This document shows, one piece after another, positions 5,856 through 40,227 of a DNA stretch of 43,901 bases. The position numbers and the translations under genes were made by a program. The stretch is from Candidatus Micrarchaeota archaeon (GTDB lineage Archaea; Micrarchaeota; Micrarchaeia; Micrarchaeales; CABMGC01). The DNA is taken from assembly GCA_030040265.1 (NCBI GenBank), contig JASHUB010000069.1:1-43901 (forward strand), in the 5' to 3' direction. The notes beneath the pieces are model-generated. The model ran no database searches, had not been told where the DNA came from, and was given only the letters and a program-made list of their open reading frames with translations. Numbering within the stretch: position 1 is the first letter of the stretch; the number at the start of each line of letters is the position of its first letter.

Positions 5856-6419
5856 CAGCAGCAGCTGTTCTATTTCGTTCCAGTTCTTTGCAGTGTGCAC
5901 GCCGAATGCAGCTGCAGAGCGGAGATGCTTCGCGTTCCATGGCTGCAGGAACATGATAGCGCCCTTGCCGTGCACCCTCGCATCCTTGAGGACGTCGAAG
6001 AAGTCGTCGATGTGGATGTCGGTGTCGGGCTGCATCTTGCTCCCGAGCCTAGGCACGATGACTATCTTGTCGTGGGGGATGCCCTTGCCGTTAAGCCACT
6101 TCTCGGCGCTCTCCTTCCCGCCGACAGTCGCTGTGATTATGCTTATCGAGTACCTGTCCTTCAGCCTGTTCAATACGGATGGCGCTTCGTTGTCCACGAG
6201 CCGTATGCTTTCATGGGCGTCCCAGAGGCGCTTGAACATGTCAAGATATTCACTCTCTCCTATGTGCTTGAACGCATCGTGGTCAAGAAGGTGACCCCGT
6301 ATCTCCTCCTTCTGGACCGCCGCCCCGTGCTCGCTTTTTGCTATCTCAAGCCAGCGCTCGACCGAATCGGATAGCACGCCCTCGAGGTCTATCCCCAGTG
6401 TAGGCTTGTTGCCGTTCAT
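5829..6419 (-). CDS. HAD-superfamily hydrolase, 5'(3')-deoxyribonucleotidase-like
   Basis: The N-terminal LGIDLEGVLSD resembles the NT5C/HAD motif I (DxDGVL), but with Glu at the +2 position. Motif-IV-like IHIDD near the C-terminus. The 3' end overlaps trmI convergently by 27 nt. Confidence 0.5.
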   Translation of the reverse strand: MNGNKPTLGIDLEGVLSDSVERWLEIAKSEHGAAVQKEEIRGHLLDHDAFKHIGESEYLDMFKRLWDAHESIRLVDNEAPSVLNRLKDRYSISIITATVGGKESAEKWLNGKGIPHDKIVIVPRLGSKMQPDTDIHIDDFFDVLKDARVHGKGAIMFLQPWNAKHLRSAAAFGVHTAKNWNEIEQLLLSGPLSGKY

Positions 6420-7381
6420 TTCTCCTTGCTGAGAAGCGCGAACCTCGCGAGCATCGCCTCGAGCTGGATCCTGTCATTCGCCCCCTCTACGATCCTGAAG
6501 TTGTAGTCGCCGATGAGGCTTATGAGCCGGAGCTTGAGCTTGTCCTCGAGCTCCATGTTGAGCGCCTCGCGGTAGCACTGCAGCAGCACGTCTTCCCCGC
6601 TCATCCCGTACTTCAGCGTCAGCGTGTTGAGGTCGTCCCTTGCAGGCACGAACTCCCCGTTTAGCGCGTGCTTGAGCATCGACGCCACTTCCGTGGGACG
6701 CGCCCTTGACGCGATATCGTAGATCAGGTTCTCGGTGATCTTCTTCTCCGAGACGCCGGCGCTCTGCATTATGTTCGTGAGTTTCCTGAGGTCGCCTTCG
6801 CTAACGTATATGAGCGCGTTCTTCGATTTCTCGTCGACCTTGAGGCTCTCTGCCTCCGCGACCCTGTCGATGTACTTCAGCATGTGCTGCTCGGTCAGCG
6901 GCTTGAACCTCAGCACCACGCACCTCGACTGGATGGGCTCTATTATCTTGCTTGCGTAGTTTGCGCTGAGTATGAATCTTGTGGTGGCCGAGTACTTCTC
7001 CATGGTCCTCCTGAGCGCGTGCTGCGCCTCCGGGGTGAGCGCGTCCGCCTCGTCAAGGAAGATTATCTTCAGGAGTCCGCTCGACAGCGGCAGCGTTCTT
7101 GCGAACTCTTTCACCTTGCCGCGTACTACGTCGATTCCTCTGCTATCCGATGCGTTGAGTTCGAGGAACGCCTCGTTCATCTTGTCTCCGTACATCTCGC
7201 GTGCCATGGCAATCGCAGATGTCGTCTTGCCCACTCCTGCAGAACCTGCAAATATCATGTTTGGGAAGTTCATGACCTTGACGAACGCCTTGAGCTTGTC
7301 GACTATCGCCTCCTGGCCTATGACCTCGCTGAGCTTCGCTGGGCGGTATTTCTCCGTCCACGATTGGTCAAGCGCAGGCAT
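6416..7381 (-). CDS. rfcS: Replication factor C small subunit
   Basis: WTEKYRP, Walker A GSAGVGKTT, DEAD Walker B, SRC motif. 321 aa, no intein. Confidence 0.93.
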   Translation of the reverse strand: MPALDQSWTEKYRPAKLSEVIGQEAIVDKLKAFVKVMNFPNMIFAGSAGVGKTTSAIAMAREMYGDKMNEAFLELNASDSRGIDVVRGKVKEFARTLPLSSGLLKIIFLDEADALTPEAQHALRRTMEKYSATTRFILSANYASKIIEPIQSRCVVLRFKPLTEQHMLKYIDRVAEAESLKVDEKSKNALIYVSEGDLRKLTNIMQSAGVSEKKITENLIYDIASRARPTEVASMLKHALNGEFVPARDDLNTLTLKYGMSGEDVLLQCYREALNMELEDKLKLRLISLIGDYNFRIVEGANDRIQLEAMLARFALLSKEK

Positions 7382-7460
7382 GCCATCCCCTGATAATAAG
7401 CAGATAGATTATGGTGCTAAACAATATTTAATATTATGCTTCTCTATCTAATGAGATGCC

Positions 7461-7820
7461 ATGGTCAGCGAGTACTTTATCATAGGAATCACGCTGTTGT
7501 CGGCGCTGATCGCATCGTTCGCCCAGTACCTTTTCAAGCGCGCGGTGCCCAAGTTCCACTTCAACCTTAAGGACATAGCCGGGCTGTTCAGGAACAGGCT
7601 GCTTGTCACTGCGCTTGCGATATACGTGGCGGACCTGGCAGTGTACCTGGTCGCGCTCCACTACGGGCAACTCTCGTTCGTGTACCCCGTCTTCGCCAGC
7701 TCATTCATCTTCACGCTGCTGCTGTCGAAGTTCGTGCTTAAGGAGAAGACAAGCGCGCTCCGCGTGCTTGGCATACTGATGGTGTTCGCCGGCATAGTGA
7801 TAGTGGCGTTGACGTACTAG
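7461..7820 (+). CDS. Small 4-TM membrane protein, EamA/SMR-like half transporter
   Basis: 119 aa with four hydrophobic helices. Paired with a similar adjacent gene, as in heterodimeric small DMT/ArnE-ArnF-type transporters. Confidence 0.5.
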   Translation: MVSEYFIIGITLLSALIASFAQYLFKRAVPKFHFNLKDIAGLFRNRLLVTALAIYVADLAVYLVALHYGQLSFVYPVFASSFIFTLLLSKFVLKEKTSALRVLGILMVFAGIVIVALTY

Positions 7821-7856
7821 GTGTTCGTGTTGCAAAAAGAGACAAAAGAGTTCTTC

Positions 7857-8186
7857 ATGGCGCTCCTCCTGGTCAGCACGATCCTTGGAGGCGTGGGCCA
7901 GCTGCTGCTCAAGATAGGCATATCAAACCCGACGCACCTGGCTCTCGGAACGGTTGGCCTGGTCGGCTTCATAGTGCTCGGGTTCATCGCGTACGTCGCC
8001 TCATCGGGATTTTACCTTTACGTTCTTGGTAGGATGCACCTCAGCTGGGCGTACGGATTCGGCGGCATAAGCTACATAGCCGCAACGATACTAGCGATGC
8101 TGGTCCTCTCGGAAGCGGTGAGCCCGCTACGATGGGCCGGGATCATAATCATAGCGATAGGCACCGCACTGGTAGGGCTGAGCTGA
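7857..8186 (+). CDS. Small 4-TM membrane protein, EamA/SMR-like half transporter (partner of 7461-7820)
   Basis: About 109 aa from the ATG at 7857 (the ORF track starts at GTG 7821). Four hydrophobic helices. Same architecture as the upstream gene. Confidence 0.5.
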   Translation: MALLLVSTILGGVGQLLLKIGISNPTHLALGTVGLVGFIVLGFIAYVASSGFYLYVLGRMHLSWAYGFGGISYIAATILAMLVLSEAVSPLRWAGIIIIAIGTALVGLS

Positions 8187-8190
8187 TCGG

Positions 8191-8718
8191 ATGCCAAAAA
8201 CCTCAGTGTCTATACGGAAGTGCCGCCGTTCGGACAATGCGGTGCTGGAACTGATGTTCGAGGACTTCGCTGACTTTCTGGCATCTGTTGACGACCTCGA
8301 CAGGCTTGCGAGGCGCAGCGCACTGGCGAAGGCAGGCTATGGCAGGATGTACCTCAAGATGACCCTCAAAGACGTCTCCGAGAATGGAGGGGCATTCTAC
8401 GTGGCCGAGGACGGTCGCAGGCGCATCGTCGGGTTCATCGCCCTCGCGACCAGGAAACTGTCGGAGGTTCAGAGGACCGAGTTGAAGCGGCGCCAGAAGT
8501 TCGGAGAGGTTACCGAACTGTATGTCAGGCCGGAGTACAGGGGCAAGGGGCTCGCCACTTCGCTTATGGACAAGGCAGAGCATTACCTTATGGGGAAAGG
8601 CTGCAATTGCATCACCATCAAAGTCTTTGCTCCGAACGCGATTGCGCGTGGATTCTACGAAAAATTCGGTTACAGGGAGCGCGGAATCGAGCTCATCAAG
8701 GAGTTCAAGCACGGCTAG
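8191..8718 (+). CDS. GNAT-family N-acetyltransferase
   Basis: Acetyl-CoA binding motif YRGKGLATSLM. The C-terminal ARGFYEKFGY is typical of GNAT. Confidence 0.8.
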   Translation: MPKTSVSIRKCRRSDNAVLELMFEDFADFLASVDDLDRLARRSALAKAGYGRMYLKMTLKDVSENGGAFYVAEDGRRRIVGFIALATRKLSEVQRTELKRRQKFGEVTELYVRPEYRGKGLATSLMDKAEHYLMGKGCNCITIKVFAPNAIARGFYEKFGYRERGIELIKEFKHG

Positions 8719-8723
8719 CGCCG

Positions 8724-9806
8724 CTACCTCGTTATCCGGTAGGTCTTTACCTTCTCGTAGAGTTCCCTGGCCTTCTTGTCCTTCTCGAAGTGCTCGCGGA
8801 TTGGCTTTATCTCCGCCTCCAGCGCATCGGCAACGAAGTTCTTCAGGTCCACCGGGTGGACTTTGCCATCCTTGTAGAGCCTTTCGAGGTCCGCGAGGCC
8901 TGATGCCTCTATCGGCCCGCCGAACTTAGCCGGACGGTCGATCGTTATCTGCTCGTCCTTGTCATCCAATATTATCCTGTTGAGGTAGTCGAACATCGGG
9001 TTGCCGTCCACGACCTTCTCGGGACAGTATGCGGAGTTGATCTTTGCCTTTATCTCAGCCGCGGTGTCGTGCACAAGTATGGAGGAGTTGGGGTTGGACT
9101 TGGACATCTTGAACGCCATCCCTTCTGCATCGCTCATGGTCTTCAGGTCCTTCGGCGCGCCCTGCAGGCCGAGCAGGTATCCGTGGTGGACCGCTACTGG
9201 CACCTTCCACTTGTACTTCTGCGCCACCTCCCTGGCGAGTATATTGGCCTTCCTCTGGTCCATGCCCAACTGGCATATGTCTATGTCCATCTGGAATATG
9301 TCGGTGACCTGCATGCACGGGTAGAAGAGCGATGCGGTGTCCTGCGCCTCGCCTTCCTTCCTTCCCATTATGGTGACGGCGCGCTTTACTCGGTCAAGTG
9401 TCAGAACTTTGCCGACCCGGATGAACATGTCCCAGTAATCGAGGCTGCTCATGAGGTCCTTGCACCATACGACGTTCACCTTCGACGTGTCGATGCCTGC
9501 GCCCTTCCACACTTCAACGAAGTATCTTCCGACGTCCCGTATCTTCTCCAGGTCGCCGCCCATCTTGTTGTTGATGAGTGCGAAGTAGTCCGCAAGGTAC
9601 AGGTTGAAGCGTATGCCAACGCTGAGCATCGTCTTGAGATTCTTGGCGCGCAGCACTCCGAAGTGTATCGGCGCCAGCCCAGATGGCTCGAAACCGTCGT
9701 AAGCAAGGGGGTGGTCGTTCGTCTGGAACAGCTGCCTCAGCTCGTCCTCCGTGACGATCTCTGCGGCGAAGCTCTTTATCGCTGCGATCTTGGTTTCCAC
9801 GTCCAT
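8724..9806 (-). CDS. tyrS: Tyrosyl-tRNA synthetase
   Basis: Collinear with archaeal TyrRS: YDGFEPSG..IHFG (HIGH region), LADYFALIN, YPCMQVTDI, GMDQRKANILARE, KMSKS, AYCP..VVDGNP, FGGPIE. I prefer the ATG at 9806 (MDVETK) because gctataaaaaca (minus strand, 9843-9852) lies upstream of it and downstream of the ORF-track ATG at 9866. Confidence 0.88.
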   Translation of the reverse strand: MDVETKIAAIKSFAAEIVTEDELRQLFQTNDHPLAYDGFEPSGLAPIHFGVLRAKNLKTMLSVGIRFNLYLADYFALINNKMGGDLEKIRDVGRYFVEVWKGAGIDTSKVNVVWCKDLMSSLDYWDMFIRVGKVLTLDRVKRAVTIMGRKEGEAQDTASLFYPCMQVTDIFQMDIDICQLGMDQRKANILAREVAQKYKWKVPVAVHHGYLLGLQGAPKDLKTMSDAEGMAFKMSKSNPNSSILVHDTAAEIKAKINSAYCPEKVVDGNPMFDYLNRIILDDKDEQITIDRPAKFGGPIEASGLADLERLYKDGKVHPVDLKNFVADALEAEIKPIREHFEKDKKARELYEKVKTYRITR

Positions 9807-10087
9807 ACTTTGCACCCTGCAAGAACCTATGCAAGTCAATGTTTTTATAGCGTGTGTACGGGCCAAAAACCGAAGAGTTCGTCAGGATTTATATATCTGC
9901 AAAAGCAACCTGTTATCGGCGTTTAGAGCATATTCTTATAATCTTCCCACTCTCTAAACGTCTCCTACTCAACTCGGCATTCCACAACCCGGCAGGCATT
10001 GGAAACAGCTTAAAAGCTTGGCGTCGGGTCTATTAACGGGATACTGGTTATTAAGGCTATCCCGGCAATATATAGTGTGATACTCTT

Positions 10088-12139
10088 ATGCAGAAGTTTA
10101 AGTCGACAAACGACATACAGATCCCTGACAGGATCATAGACCAGGTAATAGGGCAGGAGAACGCCGCCAACATAATAAAGAAGGCTGCAAAGCAGCACAG
10201 GAACATTCTACTTATAGGAGAGCCTGGGACCGGAAAGACCATGCTCGCGCAGGCCATGGCGCAGCTGCTGCCTGCTACGGATCTTGAGGACGTCCTTGTC
10301 TACAGGAACGTGAACGACGAGAACAAGCCGATAGTGAAGACCGTCAAGACGTATCCGAAGCCTCCGGAGGCGGGCAAGCCGGCCGGTGACGGGCAGGGAA
10401 GGCAGATAATCCAGAAGGAGAAGCTCAGGTCGAAGATAGACAGCGGCTCAGGAAGGAACAACATCACCCCGATAGTGATCATCCTAGTAATAATCATACT
10501 CATAGTCTCATTCTCCGGAATATTCGGAGGGAACCAGCTCATCCTGCTCGCGGCGCTCATACTGGGAGTGCTGATATTCGGCTCGATGGCGCTCTTCGTC
10601 ACCGGCTTCAGGAGAGCCGGCGTCATTCCGGGGATGTTCGACACAAGCGAACCTAAGCTCATCGTTGACAACACGGGAAGAGACAGCGCACCGTTCGTGG
10701 ACGGCACCGGTTCGAGGGCCGGGGCGCTCTTCGGAGACGTTAAGCACGACCCGCTGCAGTCTGGCGGCCTCGGGACTCCGCCGCACCTCAGAGTGGAGAG
10801 CGGAGCGGTGCACAGGGCAAACCACGGCGTGCTGTACGTCGATGAGGTCGCGTCGCTCGAGCCTAGGTCGCAGCAGGAGCTTCTGACCGCACTGCAGGAG
10901 AAGAAATATTCGATAACCGGCCAGAGCGAACTTAGCTCTGGTGCAATCGTAAGGACCGAGCCGGTGCCTTGCGACTTCATACTCGTTGCCGCGGGGAACG
11001 TGCAGGACCTGCAGAAGATGCACCCTGCGCTCCGTTCAAGGATACGCGGATACGGATATGAAGTCTACATGGACTCCTCGATGCCTGACACGCAATCCAA
11101 TGTTGACAAACTACTCCGGTTCATAGCGCAGGAGGTGAGGAAGGACGGCAGGATACCTCCATTCGACTACGATGCCGCAATGGAGATCGTGGAGGAGTCG
11201 AGAAGGAGGAGCGGCAGGAAGAACAGGTTGTCGCTGATACTCAGGGACTTGGGAGGCCTGGTCAGGGCCGCGGGAGACGTCGCGAAGGAACGCGGGCACT
11301 CGCTTGTTACTCGGGACGACGTCAAGGCGGCGATGGCATTCGCGAAGCCGATAGAGGCGCAGTTCGTAGACCAGTCGCTCGAATACAAGAAGGACTACAA
11401 GGTCTTCGCAACAAGAGGGTTCGCGATAGGGAAGGTCAACGGGCTCGCGGTCATCGGCACGTCGCACCTGTCAACAGGAGTCATCATACCGATAGTAGCG
11501 GAAGTCACGCCGGCGAGCTCCCGAGCTGAAGGCAAGCTCATAGCAACGGGCAAGCTCGGCAAGATCGCGCAGGAGGCCGTGAAGAACATCAGCGCAGTCA
11601 TCAAGAGGCACATGAACAGGGACGTAGCAAGCTACGACGTTCACGTGCAGTTCCTCCAGACATACGAAGGCGTGGAGGGCGACAGCGCATCAATCTCAGT
11701 AGCGGTCAGCGTCATATCCGCGATGGAGGGCATACCGATAGACCAGGAAGTGGCCATGACAGGTTCGCTCTCGGTGAGGGGAGATGTGCTGCCTGTGGGC
11801 GGCGTGACCAACAAGGTCAAGGCTGCGATAGAGAGCGGTATGAAGATAGTCATAATACCAAAGGCGAACGAGAAGGACGTCTACATAGACAAGACCGAGC
11901 TGAAGAAGATACGGATCGTGCCGGTCAGGAACATCGCCGAAGTCCTAGAGGTGGCGCTCAAGAAGAGCCCGAGGAGAGACGCAATAATTAAGGAACTTAA
12001 GCAATACATAACAAAGGACAGCCAGGAGAAACCGCCGCTGGTGATAGCGCCGAAGGAAGGCAGGGAAGACGGCCAGGAAGAAAAGGTGATCAGATCGCAA
12101 AGAAGGAGAACGACGCAAAGAAGAAGATCGAAGGGCTAG
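10088..12139 (+). CDS. lonB: Archaeal membrane-anchored Lon protease (LonB)
   Basis: Walker A GEPGTGKT. Two TM helices inserted in the AAA+ module ([15 protein letters not shown]..., [21 protein letters not shown]). Walker B VLYVDE. The C-terminal Lon protease domain has GDSASISVA (catalytic Ser) and GGVTNKV. Confidence 0.92.
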
Positions 12140-12150
12140 GCTCGACGATA

Positions 12151-13197
12151 GTGACCGAGATAAAGTCGGGCAAGAACCCGAAGTTCGTCACCATAGCCAG
12201 GACAAGGTCCAACATAACGTTCAACAAGAAGGAGGGCTACCTCGACCTGGGCCGCGCGACGGAGGAGAGGACCTTCATCAACGTCTCGCAGTCCAAGAAG
12301 TTCATGCAGACCGTGGCGATAGCGGCGAAGTGCCACAAGTTCCTGTCCGAGAACCTGCACACCACGATAAGAGGGTTATACTACCAGCTCAAGTTCTCAC
12401 TCGGCGAGGACGTGGATGAGAGCATCTTCGGGGAGCAGACCGAATCGAACCCCCTAATCGAAGACCTGGAGGTGTCGCTGGGCGTTAAGAGAGAGGATCT
12501 GAACCTCAACGCGAATAGGAAGGGAGTGCTCGCAGGCAACATGAAGGTCGTGGACAGGTTCGGGAACGAGCGCGTTGAGATAGACTGCACCAAGCAGGGC
12601 AGGAGCGGCTGGAACATACCGAGCGACGTGGACAACGACATGGAGTTCATTAACGTCAAGGCGAAGTACGTGCTTGTAGTTGAGAAGGACGCGCTGTGGC
12701 AGAGGCTCAACGAGGACGGATTCTGGAAGAAGGAGAACTGCATACTCATAAGCCCGCAGGGACAGGCGTCCAGAGGTACGCGAAGGATAATCAGGAAGCT
12801 TGCCGACACGGGCCTGCCGATATACGTGTTCACCGACTCAGATGCGTGGGGATGGTACATCTACTGGACGATAAAGACAGGCAGCATAAACCTTGCGTAC
12901 ATAGGCAGCGACGTCGCGACGCCGGAGGCGAGGTTCATAGGCGTCACCATGTCTGACCTGGACCGGTATGAGTTCCTGAACAAGCTGACGATAAACGCGA
13001 GCGACGTTGACCTGAAGAGGGCGCAGGAGATGCTAGAGTACCCGTGGATAAAGCAGCACAAGGAGTGGGTCACGGAGCTGGAGCGGATGATCAAGAGCAA
13101 GAAGAAGCTTGAGCAGGACGCGCTGCAGGGGCCGAGGCTCACTTTCGTTGACGATTACATCAAAGAGAAGATCGAGAAGAAGGCGTACCTGCCTTAG
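12151..13197 (+). CDS. top6A: DNA topoisomerase VI subunit A (Spo11 family)
   Basis: IRGLYYQLK catalytic Tyr region. TOPRIM VVEKDALW and FTDSDAWGWYIY. GTG start 12 nt after the lon stop. Confidence 0.9.
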   Translation: MTEIKSGKNPKFVTIARTRSNITFNKKEGYLDLGRATEERTFINVSQSKKFMQTVAIAAKCHKFLSENLHTTIRGLYYQLKFSLGEDVDESIFGEQTESNPLIEDLEVSLGVKREDLNLNANRKGVLAGNMKVVDRFGNERVEIDCTKQGRSGWNIPSDVDNDMEFINVKAKYVLVVEKDALWQRLNEDGFWKKENCILISPQGQASRGTRRIIRKLADTGLPIYVFTDSDAWGWYIYWTIKTGSINLAYIGSDVATPEARFIGVTMSDLDRYEFLNKLTINASDVDLKRAQEMLEYPWIKQHKEWVTELERMIKSKKKLEQDALQGPRLTFVDDYIKEKIEKKAYLP

Positions 13198-34535: not shown

Positions 34536-34823
34536 ATGACACAGCGTTCGCATGGACTGTTTATAGGAAGGACGAGGAACCTCTCGAGGCACCACAAGCC
34601 GTCGACACTAGGCCTCACGAAGCTCATCAAGGACTTCAAGGTGGGTGACAGGGTGGTCGTTGTCCCTAGGTCCAACCTGAAGAACATACCGCACCCGAGG
34701 TACAGGGGTCGCGTGGCTGTCGTCATCGAGAAGAGGGGCAACTCGTACGTCGTCGAGCTCAACACCTCGAAGTACACCAAGAGGACGCTGATTGTGCCAC
34801 AGATGCACCTGGAGCGCGCTTAG
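34536..34823 (+). CDS. rpl21e: Ribosomal protein L21e
   Basis: MTQRSHGLFIGRTRN...FKVGDRVVVVP...HPRYRGRVAVVIEKRGNSYVVEL...LIVPQMHLERA. I prefer the ATG at 34536 over the ORF-track GTG at 34434, which lies inside the promoter region. Confidence 0.9.
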   Translation: MTQRSHGLFIGRTRNLSRHHKPSTLGLTKLIKDFKVGDRVVVVPRSNLKNIPHPRYRGRVAVVIEKRGNSYVVELNTSKYTKRTLIVPQMHLERA

Positions 34824-34837
34824 TGCCGGCGGAACCC

Positions 34838-37800
34838 TTATCCTCTCTTTGTCGCTTGCAGGTCATCATCGTTATCTTTGCCATTAGTGTCGATGCCGGT
34901 AAATCGTGGAAGGTTGATATCTTCGTCTGATGCGATGCCGTCTACGAGAAGATTGAACATCCTCTCCTGTACGCCAATTCTTCTGTACATGAAAGAATCA
35001 TAGGTGCCCTGTTCGAAGAAGGTATCATATGCCGTTGCATCCTGCGCTGTAACCTCGGCTTTTGGCACGATAGCATACCCCTGTTCCGTCTTCCTGACGT
35101 GTGTCTTTCTCATTTCCTCCAGGAATGGCGTTGGGTACCTGCAGGAAATCTTGTGGATTCGGATATCGTAATGCGTTTTCGTGTTTGGAGTATCGATCCT
35201 ATCAAGTCTGTTCAGCGCCTGATAATACTCCGTATAAGTGTTCGGTGCGTCTGCAAAGATGATCGTTTTCCCGGCGTTGAGCGTTATTCCAACACCGCCG
35301 GTGTCATAGGTGCATATCATAACCTTTCGCTCCGGCGCTTGCATGAACGTTAGTCTCTCGAAGTCTATGGCCATCATCGGGCTGCCGGTTGGATCCTCTA
35401 TGGGGTAACCATTTTTATCCATGGCGAATCCTTTTTCCTTGTCGTAGCAGAAAAGCTTCGGGTTGCCGGCTCCGTCTTTCAGGTAACCCTGATCGCTGAT
35501 GGTGCCGGTAAGAATTGCTGGTTTGTGGGTTCGGAGCAGCTGCTCATACGCTTCGGCTTCCTTAAGATACCGCACGTAGATCACAGTCTTCCTGCCGTCA
35601 CGAACATTTTCCTCCACGGCCTGAACCACGGCATTGTGCTTCGCGCTCTGTTCATCGGAACCGACGTAAGAAGGATTGTTCATCGATTGCAGCAAAGCAT
35701 GCTTCTTGATGAGTTGATTGCCCTCCCAGACCTCCCTGTCACCAGCCAGATAGTGGCCGTACTTCTCTGACCAGCCCCTCCAATTCAGGAACATATCCAA
35801 TACCGAGCGTGCCTGCGCGTCGGTCAATTCGAACTCGGTGACCGGCATGCGGGTCTTTATGGGCAGTCTGCCATGCTGCTCCGCTAGCGGTATAGCTGGG
35901 TCGTATTCGTCAAGTACCTCCTCTTTTCTAAACCTAACAACTAGTGGGTCTGCCAAGGCGAAGAGCGCCCTGTATGACGCAGGATCCGAACGGTCAAATG
36001 CTTTAGCAAAGCTGGATTCGCTCTCGAACCTCTCATCATCGGGAAGTAGGTAGTTGAACATCGCGCGGTACTTGCTGATATTTGGATACGGAGTCGCCGT
36101 GACGATTATGACGAAGTCTGGGGTGAGCCTGCCAAGCCCCTTGCTCTGGTTTGTGTCGGTATTAGTCAGCCAGTGTGCCTCGTCTACAACTAGAATTCCA
36201 TCCTGCCCCAACGCAGAATTGAGGAGCTCGAACCGTTCTTCGTCTTCCGCGTCTCTTAGGAACTCTTGATTTGTCAGCATGCTCGATCGTTCACCGCCCC
36301 TTCTCGTTCTGGAGAGCACTTCTTGCCTTATTGCAGCCTTTCGTGCATCCCTTGGCAGACCGTGGAGTAAAGTCAGCCTTTCATGGGGCAGGAACCTTGA
36401 TCTTTGCTCGTCCCATGTGCTAGCAACGCTGTTTGGAGTCACGATTAAGCCTGCCCTCTGAAGGGATTGCAGCGCGGCTAAGGTCGTAAGGGTCTTCCCT
36501 AAGCCCGCCTCCAATGATAGTATGACTCCCTTGCTCCTATCTGCACGTCGCACGGCTTTCCGGATCTTGTGTATGGCATACTTCTGGTAGAAAAGCAGCT
36601 CTTCGCCTTCTGCCAATGCCGGATAGGGTTCAGATCGGATTAGCCTAAAAGTCCCCAAAACCTGCTCCAATCCGCGTCTCACGACCTCGCTGTCTTCCCG
36701 TTTTATCAGGTCCGCCACGCTCGACTCTGCGCTCTCAAAGGAGTATACGAATCTCTTTATCAGGGTTTCTTCGAGCACGTCCACAAGCAAGTCGAATGCA
36801 CCGGCATCCGTCTTGAGCCGGGCTAGTGCATCAGAGCCCATCTGCCGCACCGCTTCGAGAAGCCTTTCGGCATCGGAAGCCTCGCTAGATTGTCTGATTG
36901 TCGAGGTTCTAACCTCACTTCTTGTCTTATCATCAGTGTTTATCGCGAATAGCCTTAGTTCATTGTGTTTGCCTAGGGTAAGCGGAATCGTTGCCTGGAA
37001 CTCGCCATTGACCACTCTGATTCGTCTGCCAAAAGGTCCAGCGATGTATACATGAGTCGCAGCATCTGCTGTGCCTTTGACCGTTAGCGTCTTCCCGCTT
37101 GTGACCACAGGGATAACCGTTTGCATAGATGGACCTTTGAGCGAAATCGAGAATTTCAGATACTCGGATTCCCTGTCGCCCCCTGTCCTATTTAGAGCGT
37201 GGAAAGAGGTTAAGACCAGCCTGTCTGACGCCCCTTCGGTTAGGTTTGGATTAGATAAAAGCAGGAATTTCTTCATTTGGATCGGGTGTTCTCCTAGCAA
37301 GGCTATGACATTTCCCAGGTTCATCTTTTCTGCAATCTCTAATTCCTTGTCCTCCCTGAGCCCCTCCAACTCACCGGAATGAATGTTTCTGAGCGCTTCT
37401 TCCCGCGTCATGCCATAAGAAGACAGTTCTAGGAAATCCCTGGCTTCTACATGAGAGGTAATACCCTTTATGCCTGAACTTTTCAGGCTTCTGGTAATTC
37501 CATAGAATGTTAGTTTGTAGGTCAAGTCGCTGTGGGTTATGGAGACCTCCCTGCGATCGCCTACGGAGAGTTCGGAAATCGATCTGTCCGGGTTGCCATC
37601 GAGGAGCTGCTGGCGTATCGCATCCCTTGCGGCGTCCACGAATTTGTCATCGGACCAGAGCGCTGGTGGGAGGAGCATCCTTGATTTGTTGCCGGAAAGG
37701 AAATCCCTGGCGTCTAGGAAAGAGGTAAGGCCTTCTACCTCGGAACATAGACATCGGAGGATATTCGTAAAGGCGGGTTTGTAGGTCACGTCATTGTAGG

Positions 37801-40168
37801 TTATGGCGACTTCTGTGTGGTCATTTGTCGAGATCTCTGAAATGGACCTGTTGGGATCGCCGCCGAGGAGCTGCTGGCGAATTGCTTCCCTTGCAGCGTC
37901 CACGAATTCGTCATTGGACCAGAGCTCTGACGGAAGAAACATCCTTGATTTATTGCCGGAAAGGAAATCCCTGGCTTCTGTGGGGGTAGTGATGCCTTCT
38001 ATGCCGGAATTTCTCAGACTTGTGATAAGTCTAACGAATGTGAGTTTGTAGGTCACGTAGTTGTGGGTTATGGAGACCTCCCTGTGATCATTTGTGGAGA
38101 GTTCGGATATTGATCTGTCCGGGTTGCCATCGAGGAGCTGCTGGCGTATCGCATCCCTTACGGCATCTACGAATTTGTCATCGGACCAGAGCGCTGATGG
38201 GAGAACCATCCTTGATTTGTTGCCGGAAAGGAAATCCCTGGCTTCTGTGGCAGTGGTGATGCCGTCTATGCCAGAACGTTTAAGGCTTTGGAGAATTCCC
38301 ATGAAGGTGGGTTTGTAGGTTATACAATTGTAAATTATTGGAACCTCCGTGTTGTCCTCTGTCGAGATCTCTGAAATGGACTTATTGGGATCTGCGCCGA
38401 GGAGCTGCTGGCGAATTGCTTCCCTTGCAGCGTCCACGAATTTGTCATTGGACCAGAGCGCTGGTGTAAGAAACCTCCTTGATTTATCACCGGAAAGGAA
38501 ATCCTTGGCTTCTGCGCGGTGTGTGATGCCAGGCATGCCTGAACTCTTTAGACTTACGAGAATGCCCGGGAAGGTGATAGTATAGGTCACGTAGTTGTGG
38601 GTTATGGAGACCTCCCTGTTATCACCTACAGAGAGTTCGGAAATCGATCTGTCCGGGTTGCCATCGAGGAGCTGCTGGCGTATCGCATCCCTTACAGCAG
38701 CTACGAATTTGTCATCGGACCAGAGCGCTGATGGAAGAACCATCCTTGATTTGTTGCCGGAAAGGAAATCCCTGGCTTCTGTGGGAGTGGTGATGCCTTC
38801 TATGCCAGAACGTTTAAGGCTCGCGAGAATTCCAACGAAGGTGAGTTTGTAGGTCACGTAGTTGTGGGTTATGGAGACCTCCCTGTTATCACCTACGGAG
38901 AGTTCGGAAATCGATCTGTCCTGGTTGCCATCGAGGAGCTGCCGGCGTATCGCATCCCTTACGGCATCTACGAATTTGTCATTGGACCAGAGCGCCGGTG
39001 GGAGAACCATCCTTGATTTGTTGCCGGAAAGGAAATCCTTGGCTTCTGTGGCAGTGGTGATGTCTGCTATGCCAGAACATATGCTTCGGAGAATTCCCTC
39101 AAAAGTGGGTTTGTAGGTCACACCGTTGTGGGGTATAGAAACGTTCCTGCAATCACCTACCGAGAGTTCGGATATTGATCTGTCTGGATTGCCATCAAGG
39201 AGCTGCTGGCGTATCGCATCTCTTGCAGCGTCCACGAATTTGTCATCGGACCAGAGCGTTGATTGGAGAACCATCCTTGATTTATTGCCGGAAAGGAAAT
39301 CCCTGGCTTCTGTGGTAGAGGTGATGCCTTTTATGCCAAACGTTACCGGGCTTTGGAGAATTCCATGAAAGGTGAGTTTGTAGGTCACGTCGTTGTAGGT
39401 TACGGGAACCTCCCTGTTATCACCTACGGAGAGTTCGGATATTGATCTGTCTGGATTGCCATCAAGGAGTTGCCGGCGTATTGCGTCCCTTACGGCATCT
39501 ACGAATTTGTCATTGGACCAGAGCGCTGGTGAGAGACGTGCCCTTGATTTATTACCTGAAAGGAAATCTCTGGCTTCTGGAGGAGAGGTGATGCCTTCTA
39601 TGCCAGAACATATGCTTCGGAGAATTCCCTTGAAGGCTAGTTTGTAGGTCACATCGTTGTGGGTTATGGCGACCTCCCTGCGATCATTTGTGGAGAGTTC
39701 GGATATTGATCTGTCTGGATTGCCATCAAGGAGCTGCTGGCGTATCGCATCCCTTACGGCATCTACGAATTTGTCATCGGACCAGAGCGCTGATGGGAGA
39801 ACCATCCTTGATTTGTTACCGGAAAGGAAGTCTCTGGCTTCTGAAAGGGAGTTGATGCCCTCTATCCCGGAATTTTTCAGACTTGCGATAAGTCCAACGA
39901 AGGTGAGTTTGTAGGTCACGTCGTTGTGGGTTATGGAGACGTCTCTACTGTCCTCGGTTGATATTTCTGAAATGGACCTGTTGGGGTCGTCGCCGAGGAG
40001 CTGCTTCCGTATGGCATCCCTAGCCGCAGTCACGAATTCATTATTAGACCACAGCACTGGTGGGAGACGTTTTGGTGACTTCGTTTTAAGAGCCGGCGGT
40101 TTCGCCTCTTGGCCTATGTTTACGCCGCTTTGTGGCTGCTTTGGCGGCGATCTAACTATGGGTGGCAC
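34838..40168 (-). CDS. Giant (1776 aa) protein: 10 tandem ~89-aa repeats, a beta-rich middle region, and a C-terminal SNF2-family ATPase
   Basis: SNF2 motifs: Q-like LFYQKYAIHKI; I LEAGLGKT (36491-36514); Ia IVTPNSVASTWDEQ; II VVDEAHW (about 36173-36184); III IIVTATPYPN; V TYDTGGVGITLN; VI QALNRLDRID (35192-35221). N-terminal repeats span aa ~35-912. No nuclease, methylase or integrase motif recognised. Confidence 0.85.
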   Translation of the reverse strand: MPPIVRSPPKQPQSGVNIGQEAKPPALKTKSPKRLPPVLWSNNEFVTAARDAIRKQLLGDDPNRSISEISTEDSRDVSITHNDVTYKLTFVGLIASLKNSGIEGINSLSEARDFLSGNKSRMVLPSALWSDDKFVDAVRDAIRQQLLDGNPDRSISELSTNDRREVAITHNDVTYKLAFKGILRSICSGIEGITSPPEARDFLSGNKSRARLSPALWSNDKFVDAVRDAIRRQLLDGNPDRSISELSVGDNREVPVTYNDVTYKLTFHGILQSPVTFGIKGITSTTEARDFLSGNKSRMVLQSTLWSDDKFVDAARDAIRQQLLDGNPDRSISELSVGDCRNVSIPHNGVTYKPTFEGILRSICSGIADITTATEAKDFLSGNKSRMVLPPALWSNDKFVDAVRDAIRRQLLDGNQDRSISELSVGDNREVSITHNYVTYKLTFVGILASLKRSGIEGITTPTEARDFLSGNKSRMVLPSALWSDDKFVAAVRDAIRQQLLDGNPDRSISELSVGDNREVSITHNYVTYTITFPGILVSLKSSGMPGITHRAEAKDFLSGDKSRRFLTPALWSNDKFVDAAREAIRQQLLGADPNKSISEISTEDNTEVPIIYNCITYKPTFMGILQSLKRSGIDGITTATEARDFLSGNKSRMVLPSALWSDDKFVDAVRDAIRQQLLDGNPDRSISELSTNDHREVSITHNYVTYKLTFVRLITSLRNSGIEGITTPTEARDFLSGNKSRMFLPSELWSNDEFVDAAREAIRQQLLGGDPNRSISEISTNDHTEVAITYNDVTYKPAFTNILRCLCSEVEGLTSFLDARDFLSGNKSRMLLPPALWSDDKFVDAARDAIRQQLLDGNPDRSISELSVGDRREVSITHSDLTYKLTFYGITRSLKSSGIKGITSHVEARDFLELSSYGMTREEALRNIHSGELEGLREDKELEIAEKMNLGNVIALLGEHPIQMKKFLLLSNPNLTEGASDRLVLTSFHALNRTGGDRESEYLKFSISLKGPSMQTVIPVVTSGKTLTVKGTADAATHVYIAGPFGRRIRVVNGEFQATIPLTLGKHNELRLFAINTDDKTRSEVRTSTIRQSSEASDAERLLEAVRQMGSDALARLKTDAGAFDLLVDVLEETLIKRFVYSFESAESSVADLIKREDSEVVRRGLEQVLGTFRLIRSEPYPALAEGEELLFYQKYAIHKIRKAVRRADRSKGVILSLEAGLGKTLTTLAALQSLQRAGLIVTPNSVASTWDEQRSRFLPHERLTLLHGLPRDARKAAIRQEVLSRTRRGGERSSMLTNQEFLRDAEDEERFELLNSALGQDGILVVDEAHWLTNTDTNQSKGLGRLTPDFVIIVTATPYPNISKYRAMFNYLLPDDERFESESSFAKAFDRSDPASYRALFALADPLVVRFRKEEVLDEYDPAIPLAEQHGRLPIKTRMPVTEFELTDAQARSVLDMFLNWRGWSEKYGHYLAGDREVWEGNQLIKKHALLQSMNNPSYVGSDEQSAKHNAVVQAVEENVRDGRKTVIYVRYLKEAEAYEQLLRTHKPAILTGTISDQGYLKDGAGNPKLFCYDKEKGFAMDKNGYPIEDPTGSPMMAIDFERLTFMQAPERKVMICTYDTGGVGITLNAGKTIIFADAPNTYTEYYQALNRLDRIDTPNTKTHYDIRIHKISCRYPTPFLEEMRKTHVRKTEQGYAIVPKAEVTAQDATAYDTFFEQGTYDSFMYRRIGVQERMFNLLVDGIASDEDINLPRFTGIDTNGKDNDDDLQATKRG
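37431..40066 (-). repeat. Coding tandem array: 10 units of 264-267 bp (88-89 aa)
   Basis: The landmark ggaccagag (complement of the LWS codons) recurs at 37652, 37916, 38183, 38450, 38717, 38984, 39248, 39515 and 39779, with a variant at 40046. Spacings are 264 or 267 nt. Adjacent units are highly similar at the nucleotide level. Confidence 0.95.
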
Positions 40169-40219
40169 TGCTTCACCAGATGTATGCTATCGTATTTGCA
40201 TAGGATGGATGGATTGTCG

Positions 40220-40227
40220 TATATAAA
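40220..40227 (-). promoter_or_regulatory. TATA-like box upstream of the giant SNF2-repeat gene
   Basis: Minus-strand tttatata lies 52-59 nt upstream of the ATG at 40168, inside the inserted segment. The gene therefore appears to carry its own promoter. Confidence 0.35.

Follow-up and report, generated by a model that had tools for sequence, protein, structure and literature searches.

Within a 43,901-nt stretch of contig JASHUB010000069.1 from a Candidatus Micrarchaeota archaeon (the whole stretch that was analyzed, hereafter "the window"), a single gene encodes a predicted SNF2-family ATPase preceded by a tandem array of ten units of 88 to 89 aa. The array is an exchangeable, lineage-specific N-terminal module on a conserved SNF2 core; its units belong to a rare, previously uncatalogued domain family and combine a part held nearly constant by selection with a part that varies at defined positions. 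As for function, we tentatively propose, with somewhat less than even confidence, that the region is the N-terminal targeting array of a stand-alone archaeal SNF2-family double-stranded DNA (dsDNA) translocase, with DNA or a nucleoprotein as its target. The evidence for the array and its core is presented first, followed by the readings that compete to explain it.

The whole repeat region lies in one continuous frame, an open reading frame (ORF) of 1776 aa on the minus strand (34838–40168 in the ORF list). All ten units start with LWS, and together they span aa 39–925 (window 37394–40054, minus-strand frame; Table 1). Tandem Repeats Finder reports one large array at 37431–39940 (period 267 nt, 9.4 copies, 78% matches, score 2762). 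Compared with unit 1, the other nine units are 61 to 74% identical in protein sequence, and 27 columns are invariant, with no Cys or His among them. Nucleotide identity between units ranges from 65 to 90% (mean ∼77%) and is thus moderate, not high as a preliminary description of this DNA had put it. The same description recorded a third variant in units 1, 7, and 9, and these units do share G.DPN(R/K)SISEIST. It also gave units 2 and 8 as identical over 39 residues; this figure holds once the four preceding linker residues (PSAL..) are counted, but from LWS onward the identical stretch is 35 residues. In the DNA, the match between these two units is exact over 89 nt, which is the longest exact repeat in the array, the remaining ones being ≤63 nt.

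The claim that the first part of a unit is nearly invariant and that variation is concentrated afterwards is borne out. Mean column entropy is 0.36 bits for residues 1 to 32 versus 0.96 bits for residues 33 to 75, and the ratio of nonsynonymous to synonymous substitution rates (dN/dS) over all unit pairs is 0.09 for codons 1 to 32, 0.53 for codons 33 to 72, and 0.48 for codons 73 to 89. Proportions of synonymous (pS) and nonsynonymous (pN) differences were calculated for the main unit class (units 2, 3, 4, 5, 6, 8, and 10). Here, pS is nearly equal in codons 1 to 32 and 33 to 72 (0.27 versus 0.31), whereas pN differs about 8-fold (0.027 versus 0.226); pN/pS is 0.10 in codons 1 to 32, rises to 0.6 to 0.7 in the variable part, and stays below 1 overall. 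Because pS is alike and pN is not, the contrast reflects selection rather than a younger or homogenized N-terminal half, and we regard it as the robust part of the finding.

Purifying selection holds constant the long helix at the N-terminal end, the loop with RSISE(L/I)S, and the EARDFL helix at the C-terminal end. Differences between units fall in the loop ahead of strand 1, at the tip of the hairpin, at the i/i+4/i+8 positions of helix 3, and in the loop that leads to helix 4. The hypervariable codons are 33, 34, 36, 45, 53, 57, 61, 65, 69 to 71, and 85. In helix 3, the varying residues 53, 57, and 60/61 follow the i/i+4/i+8 spacing while F52, I55, L56, and L59 are fixed, a pattern that fits one exposed helical face; judged from this secondary-structure periodicity, each unit would present a single variable face. 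A comparison among homologues, which the preliminary description had proposed, points the same way. The variability profile of the window units correlates with that inside each homologue's array (Spearman rho 0.26–0.43, p 0.016 to 5e-5), and one of these arrays, that of protein P0004, has the same design, with a constant N-terminal helix and a variable hairpin and helix 3.

For the family, 36 units from five proteins were aligned (alignment A2). For unit 5, AlphaFold2 returned a mean predicted local distance difference test score (pLDDT) of 91.3 and a predicted template modeling score (pTM) of 0.83. The model consists, in order, of a short helix, a long helix (residues 5–19), a long loop containing RSISELS, a β-hairpin (38–43 and 46–51), helix 3 (52–60), a loop, and helix 4 (70–78, EARDFLS), and each unit is predicted to be an autonomous α/β domain. 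In a model of three consecutive units (units 5–7; pLDDT 84.5, pTM 0.56, linkers ∼69), the domains are confidently predicted but their mutual arrangement is not. Foldseek gave nothing at E ≤ 0.001, the best values being 0.62 for the unit against the PDB, 0.07 for the unit against BFVD, and ∼1 for the three-unit model against the PDB. A single unit has no Pfam match at E-values up to 10, and the family profile found chance-level matches only among PDB sequences, for example a 17-residue β-strand match to MpAFP.

The part of the protein that follows the array has clear relatives. Its ATPase portion matches PF00176 with 58.9 bits (cut-off 24.9; aa 1207–1418) and Helicase_C, PF00271, with 24.7 bits (cut-off 23.5; aa 1612–1658), and its PDB matches, which are generic only, include CHD1L and DDM1 (E 4e-11 to 7e-10) and the Sulfolobus SsoRad54-like protein. 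The family's helicase motifs can be located (Table 1); motif VI departs from the family-typical QAEDRAHRI of the related protein P0002, with both arginines kept. A long insertion in the helicase C lobe is conserved in the family, as is the C-terminus, FFEQGTYD..DGIA. On these features, the protein is an SNF2-family ATPase, and it is predicted to act as a stand-alone dsDNA translocase. The middle region between array and ATPase gave no PDB sequence match; its immunoglobulin (Ig)-like β domain matches Glucodextran_B weakly (E 6.5e-4, below cut-off).

The C-terminal core of ∼850 aa recurs, at 37 to 42% identity, in proteins P0002, P0004, P0007, and P0008, and is also present in 14 metagenome loci. 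It carries at least five array types besides that of the window. P0008 (loci L010/L011, 4120–8514) has six repeats with an exact 89-aa period and a different sequence, EYLLAFE.GA..LEQ ... GKQLCIHLRDGKTP.EAK, again divided into a constant and a variable part; with a hidden Markov model (HMM) comparison by hhalign at 44% probability (E 2e-4) and a summed E-value of 1.7e-6 for the family HMM, this repeat is possibly a distant, borderline relative of the window unit. Loci L012 and L013 carry three to four HNH_repeat-like units (PF18780, 26.3 and 31 bits against a cut-off of 26, each a sum of weak stretches), L015 at least four units of ∼103 aa, L016 to L018 three units of ∼90 aa, and L020 three units of ∼105 aa. 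The array types of L015, L017, and L020 have no detectable relation to the window unit (hhalign probability <1%). The repeats of P0007 look helix-turn-helix-like by eye only, without Pfam support. No repeats are apparent in the N-terminus of L014 (184 aa), and L021 has hardly any N-terminal extension. Hence, arrays have been exchanged on a conserved core. A match to a Paenibacillus SNF2 protein in a genome collection was discarded as unrelated. At L020 (242–6574), the open frame is 2118 aa long, and its first ∼850 aa, with a hydrophobic N-terminus, a twin-arginine translocation (TAT)-signal-like RRGFLKSLG, and an HEIDH motif, precede the repeats and the SNF2 core; this frame may be a fusion, or two genes joined by ORF extension.

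The unit itself is rare. A profile of the ten units, searched with HMMER against 1.84 billion representative proteins, recovered six proteins: the window protein itself and P0002 to P0006. A word-indexed protein search, whose prefilter seems to be defeated by repeat-rich queries, gave only the window protein itself for the full-length sequence and no match for the 36-unit alignment (424 candidates, none scored). P0002 (1494 aa) and P0004 (1218 aa) carry seven and four units, respectively, on the same SNF2 core, and P0006 (652 aa) carries three units. P0003 (1821 aa; locus L007, 8001–13466) has 12 units and no SNF2 part; its C-terminal ∼570 aa, for which no PDB relative was found, contain VLDVGSGP and weakly match an S-adenosylmethionine (SAM)-dependent methyltransferase family (Methyltransf_25, E 0.0017, below cut-off). 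E-values were 2e-18 (P0002), 8e-8 (P0003), 2e-7 (P0004), and 4e-5 (P0006), and the iterated HMM gave domain E-values down to 1e-14 to 1e-22. The remaining hit, P0005, is a bacterial LPXTG cell-wall-anchored repeat protein and was set aside as a likely chance match summed over repeats. Only four other proteins among these representatives thus carry the unit domain, all of them apparently archaeal. Their repeated units of ∼90 aa share the signature F..A...A / IS..S..D / G.TY / EAR(D).L. Identity to unit 5 is 63 to 85% within the window protein versus 13 to 27% for units of the other proteins; units are far more alike within than between proteins, which implies that the arrays expanded lineage by lineage.

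All real members of the unit family lie in ordinary-looking archaeal chromosomal contexts, and neither the SNF2 core nor the unit was found in a viral contig collection. P0002 was found identical on the six contigs read (NCBI and ENA assemblies), and two cluster members considered as strain variants, P0009 and P0011, turned out to be alternative start-codon calls only. We found no description of the unit family or the core family in the literature. At the P0006 locus (L009, 3440–9959), the genes for replication factor C (RFC) small subunit, topoisomerase VI subunit A (Topo VI-A), and LonB are adjacent, and the same three cluster at window 6416–13197, where there is no unit-bearing gene; the P0006 organism and the window organism are probably related.

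The residues following LWS alternate exactly as first described, units 1 to 10 reading NN, DD, ND, DD, ND, DD, ND, DD, ND, and DD. The conclusion once drawn from this, that a di-repeat of 531 to 534 bp was amplified five times, is unsupported, because the units are mosaic and a single nucleotide column carries the alternation. Odd and even units are told apart only by this column (A or G at nt 10 of the unit); of the nine biallelic 5/5 columns it is the one that alternates perfectly, where 0.07 would be expected by chance. In overall differentiation, the odd/even split ranks 12th among 126 balanced splits, and in a partition test based on identity, 24 of the 252 partitions reach a score as high. 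The 88-aa units (2, 4, and 9) also break the parity. A faint period-2 signal is nevertheless present: unit identity is 80.4% at lag 2 versus 77.3% at lag 1, and exact matches of ≥40 nt are somewhat commoner at two-unit spacing (six at offsets 531/534 versus three at 264/267). In the AlphaFold2 model of unit 5, the N/D position lies just before the start of the long helix as an apparent N-cap, where N and D are probably interchangeable.

Mosaicism is pronounced. Over the ten units, 55% of the pairs of informative sites are incompatible (p < 0.0005 in a test of the pairwise homoplasy index [PHI] type), and the nearest relative of a unit shifts by segment, unit 7 being closest to unit 9 in nt 1 to 96 (95%) and to unit 5 in nt 157 to 267 (88–98%). 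The units are recombination mosaics, and gene conversion between them is supported. The earlier suggestion of recent expansion or ongoing concerted evolution thus survives in its second half and in part only; recent expansion is contradicted, since synonymous divergence between units is 0.27 to 0.67, which together with their nucleotide identity marks them as old and not as recent copies. We read the alternation as, at best, a faint relic of the array's history, gene conversion among units having since overwritten whatever simple five-fold di-repeat order there was. One or two founder units would have given rise to the array through a lineage-specific expansion, after which intragenic gene conversion would have reshuffled the units.

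Mot1/BTAF1 and RapA target their SNF2 motor through N-terminal modules. By the targeting reading that we favor, the window array would offer ten related, non-identical binding sites on flexible linkers, and the ten units would bind a DNA or DNA-associated (nucleoprotein) target multivalently. Such binding would tether or position the SNF2 motor, which would translocate on duplex DNA and thereby remodel or clear the target. A binding function, a ligand class, and a coupling to the motor are what we infer; a DNA or nucleoprotein target is favored because the same N-terminal slot holds homing-endonuclease-associated repeats in orthologues, and because P0003 joins the unit to a methyltransferase-like domain. 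What the fusion partners have in common would be action on nucleic acid. Several observations weigh against this reading. With a net charge of −13 and a pI of 5.6 for the array, the units range from near neutral to acidic, which is atypical of DNA binders. Searches of Pfam, the PDB, and BFVD found no sequence or structural relative of the unit with a known ligand. Surface positions of any globular domain are expected to vary more than its interior. Finally, no neighbor gene family is common to three or more of 13 loci, so that no pathway is indicated.

The charge of the units suits protein binding better than DNA binding, one idea being that the array binds one or several proteins sitting on DNA (chromatin proteins or transcription factors, for example), and not the DNA itself, and that the motor strips them off. 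Such a Mot1-like adaptor would have a parallel in the combination of an N-terminal repeat array with a C-terminal SNF2 motor in Mot1 itself, and the ∼12 variable surface positions per unit resemble protein–protein interfaces. Yet Pfam detects neither HEAT nor any other known protein-binding repeat, there is no conserved partner gene nearby, and ten different surfaces are hard to square with a single protein target; moreover, some orthologous cores bear HNH_repeat-like arrays, of a Pfam family named for its association with homing endonucleases. We consider this explanation unlikely, though deserving of real weight.

A more far-reaching idea is that the window protein represents an undescribed archaeal family of "programmable" SNF2 motors, in which the core is retargeted by exchanging and diversifying N-terminal arrays, and in which the 89-aa unit is a new fold whose variable face reads, one unit at a time, a specific target element, be it a sequence or shape of the DNA or a variant of a chromatin protein. 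This we judge quite unlikely.

The preliminary description compared the array with the modular recognition logic of TALE, PUF, and PPR proteins. The comparison holds in that a conserved scaffold carries localized variable positions and that a role in recognition or targeting is the best reading, but it fails for structure and family membership. A sequence-reading array of this kind, or one like a zinc-finger array, would have each unit read a few bases, so that ten units spell a long DNA or RNA address. Variable positions at fixed places in the scaffold, those of helix 3 on one helical face, would suit it, and gene conversion among units is also seen in zinc-finger minisatellite arrays. However, the predicted unit is an autonomous α/β domain of 89 aa and not a helical repeat of 33 to 36 aa, a continuous superhelix seems unlikely (the linkers being of lower confidence and the three-unit pTM 0.56), and ∼12 positions vary rather than one to three. 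In addition, a Cys/His metal-ligand pattern is missing, the net charge is not basic, and Foldseek found no match to a TALE, PUF, PPR, or zinc-finger structure. We regard a base-reading code as improbable.

An involvement in conflict or defense appears similarly improbable. The SNF2 protein would then be an immune or anti-mobile-element factor whose N-terminal arrays turn over rapidly in an arms race with invaders, and both the wholesale replacement of array types on a conserved core and the raised pN/pS in the variable part would be in keeping with this. PADLOC does report DpdE, ZorD, and DrmD as weakly similar in their SNF2 lobes, but these are generic, partial matches to the N-lobe of 30 to 45 bits, far below the level of membership. 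The Pfam scan detected neither a nuclease nor another effector domain, the 13 loci share no conserved partner genes, the window and the related loci have housekeeping chromosomal contexts, the viral contig collection contains no member of the family, and pN/pS remains below 1 overall.

That the array results from chimeric or collapsed assembly, or is a spacer without function that expanded neutrally, is very improbable: although repeats are a known assembly hazard and the exact window protein is known from one contig only, which leaves its copy number without an independent check, the frame is open over 2.7 kb, codons 1 to 32 are under strong in-frame purifying selection, the fold prediction is confident, the homologous array of P0002 is identical on contigs from separate NCBI and ENA assemblies, and the units are diverged, with exact repeats so short that collapse of the array appears less likely.

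Table 1. Positions of the gene, its upstream elements, and the parts of its product in the window.
Feature	Position	Strand	Remarks
Whole gene	34838..40168	-	GTG start; leader, ten-unit array, conserved middle region, SNF2 ATPase; from ORF list
Putative TATA-box-like element, archaeal type, TTTATATA	40220..40227	-	∼56 nt upstream of GTG 40168; from reading the sequence
Putative Shine-Dalgarno-like GGTGA	40173..40177	-	4 nt upstream of GTG 40168; from reading the sequence
Basic, proline-rich leader	40055..40168	-	38 aa; net charge +6, pI 11.2
Unit 1	39788..40054	-	89 aa; LWSNN; alternative subtype G.DPN..SISEIS
Unit 2	39524..39787	-	88 aa; LWSDD
Unit 3	39257..39523	-	89 aa; LWSND
Unit 4	38993..39256	-	88 aa; LWSDD
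Unit 5	38726..38992	-	89 aa; LWSND; input of the single-unit structure model
Unit 6	38459..38725	-	89 aa; LWSDD
Unit 7	38192..38458	-	89 aa; LWSND; alternative subtype
Unit 8	37925..38191	-	89 aa; LWSDD; 89-nt exact match with unit 2
Unit 9	37661..37924	-	88 aa; LWSND; alternative subtype; most acidic unit, net charge −6
Unit 10	37394..37660	-	LWSDD; final ∼11 residues depart from the repeat pattern (FLELSSYGMTREEA) and continue into the conserved core
Conserved middle region, aa 926–1190	36599..37393	-	Helical linker (LGEHPIQMKKFLLLSNPNL), Ig-like β domain, helical domain (..SFE..); common to all family members
SNF2-family ATPase, aa 1191–1776	34841..36598	-	From Pfam and PDB matches and motifs
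Motif I, LEAGLGKT	36491-36514	-	
Motif II, VVDEAHWL	36167-36190	-	
Motif III, VTATPY	36086-36103	-	
Motif V, TGGVGITLN	35276-35302	-	
Motif VI, QALNRLDRI	35195-35221	-	

Where the gene starts is ambiguous. Its database entry, P0001, has the same protein begin at an internal GTG (40057–40055), the last codon of the leader and right at the first LWS, so that the choice lies between GTG 40168 and GTG 40057, the long form adding a leader of 37 aa; the GGTGA upstream of GTG 40168 would favor the long form. A by-eye resemblance between the leaders of the window protein and P0003 was not significant (shuffle p 0.25). The precomputed Pfam list of P0001 includes PF26488.1 and PF10636 (hemP). PF26488 was absent among the matches of our own Pfam scan (E up to 1), and PF10636 proved there to be an artifact of summing over repeats. 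The same explanation applies to DUF7401, Peptidase_M20, HVO_A0114, and some others among the full-protein Pfam matches, which are summed weak repeat matches that single units do not give. Plus-strand ORFs of ∼60 to 100 aa (e.g., MWVMETSLLSPTESSEIDLSGLPSRSCWRIASL...), one per unit, run through window 37507–40226; they were rejected as genes and taken as antisense shadows of the repeat, selection being seated on the minus-strand frame.

The gene content of the window is that of an ordinary archaeal chromosome, with genes for isoleucyl-tRNA synthetase (IleRS), a type IA topoisomerase, the RFC small subunit, LonB, Topo VI-A, FtsY, mevalonate-pathway enzymes, and Pelota, as well as L21e, an AlaX-like editing protein, CYTH, DUF655, and RpoF. 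Neither tRNA nor Rfam matches were found in the window. The L21e gene (plus strand, ending at 34823) converges on the SNF2 gene (minus strand, ending at 34838), with 14 nt between the stop codons. As listed (window 34434 onward), the L21e ORF has an N-terminal extension of ∼36 aa past its Pfam domain, and the true start is probably further downstream.

To our knowledge, there is hardly any functional work on archaeal SNF2 motors, and their targeting is not understood. The locus described here defines a compact system in a single polypeptide, made of an array, an Ig-like/helical adaptor, and a motor, in which the targeting part would be a rare, confidently foldable domain without known relatives and with conserved and variable faces delineated by selection. 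The same core with at least six array types amounts to a set of natural "swap experiments," which makes array-dependent SNF2 targeting testable in vitro. If the units are addressable binders, they would provide a new scaffold for engineered recognition; if they are not, the array is still a clean case of concerted or mosaic evolution inside one gene, coupled with diversification at particular positions. Were the idea of a programmable motor true, the protein would be an archaeal counterpart of zinc-finger/TALE-type addressable arrays, coupled directly to a remodeling motor.

Among known systems, several share part of this design. Like DpdE, ZorD, and DrmD, the window protein is a prokaryotic SNF2 ATPase with variable accessory regions and with weak N-lobe HMM similarity to these defense proteins; unlike them, it has no Mrr-like or other nuclease domain and no dpd, zor, or drm partner genes. 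HNH_repeat (PF18780) forms tandem arrays in the same N-terminal place on orthologues of the same SNF2 core (L012 and L013), but the window unit is longer and contains a β-hairpin, and single or double window units give no match to PF18780 at E-values up to 10. With TALE, PUF, and PPR proteins, the array shares a repeated unit that is mostly fixed in sequence but has a subset of residues differing from copy to copy; those proteins, however, consist of helical repeats of 33 to 36 aa in a continuous superhelix with one to three code residues, whereas the window unit is a larger α/β domain with a β-hairpin and ∼12 variable positions.

C2H2 zinc-finger arrays of the PRDM9/KRAB-ZNF type are likewise tandem arrays of small autonomous domains on a conserved scaffold, with hypervariability at fixed, helix-exposed positions and intragenic gene conversion among units. 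The window unit differs from a zinc finger in having no metal-ligand pattern (C-x2-4-C...H-x3-5-H), in being three times larger, and in its pN/pS below 1, and the window array is archaeal, is fused to an SNF2 motor, and gives no evidence of DNA reading. Mot1/BTAF1, and more loosely RapA, resemble the window protein in being single polypeptides, encoded by a stand-alone gene, with an N-terminal recognition module built of repeats and a C-terminal SNF2 motor. The HEAT repeats of Mot1 form one TBP-binding solenoid, whereas the window protein, which has no HEAT or ARM match in Pfam, carries ten autonomous 89-aa α/β domains on linkers and has its own Ig-like and helical middle region in the SNF2 core. 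Zinc-finger minisatellite arrays offer a closer evolutionary analogy, and Mot1 a closer architectural one, than TALE, PUF, and PPR proteins do.

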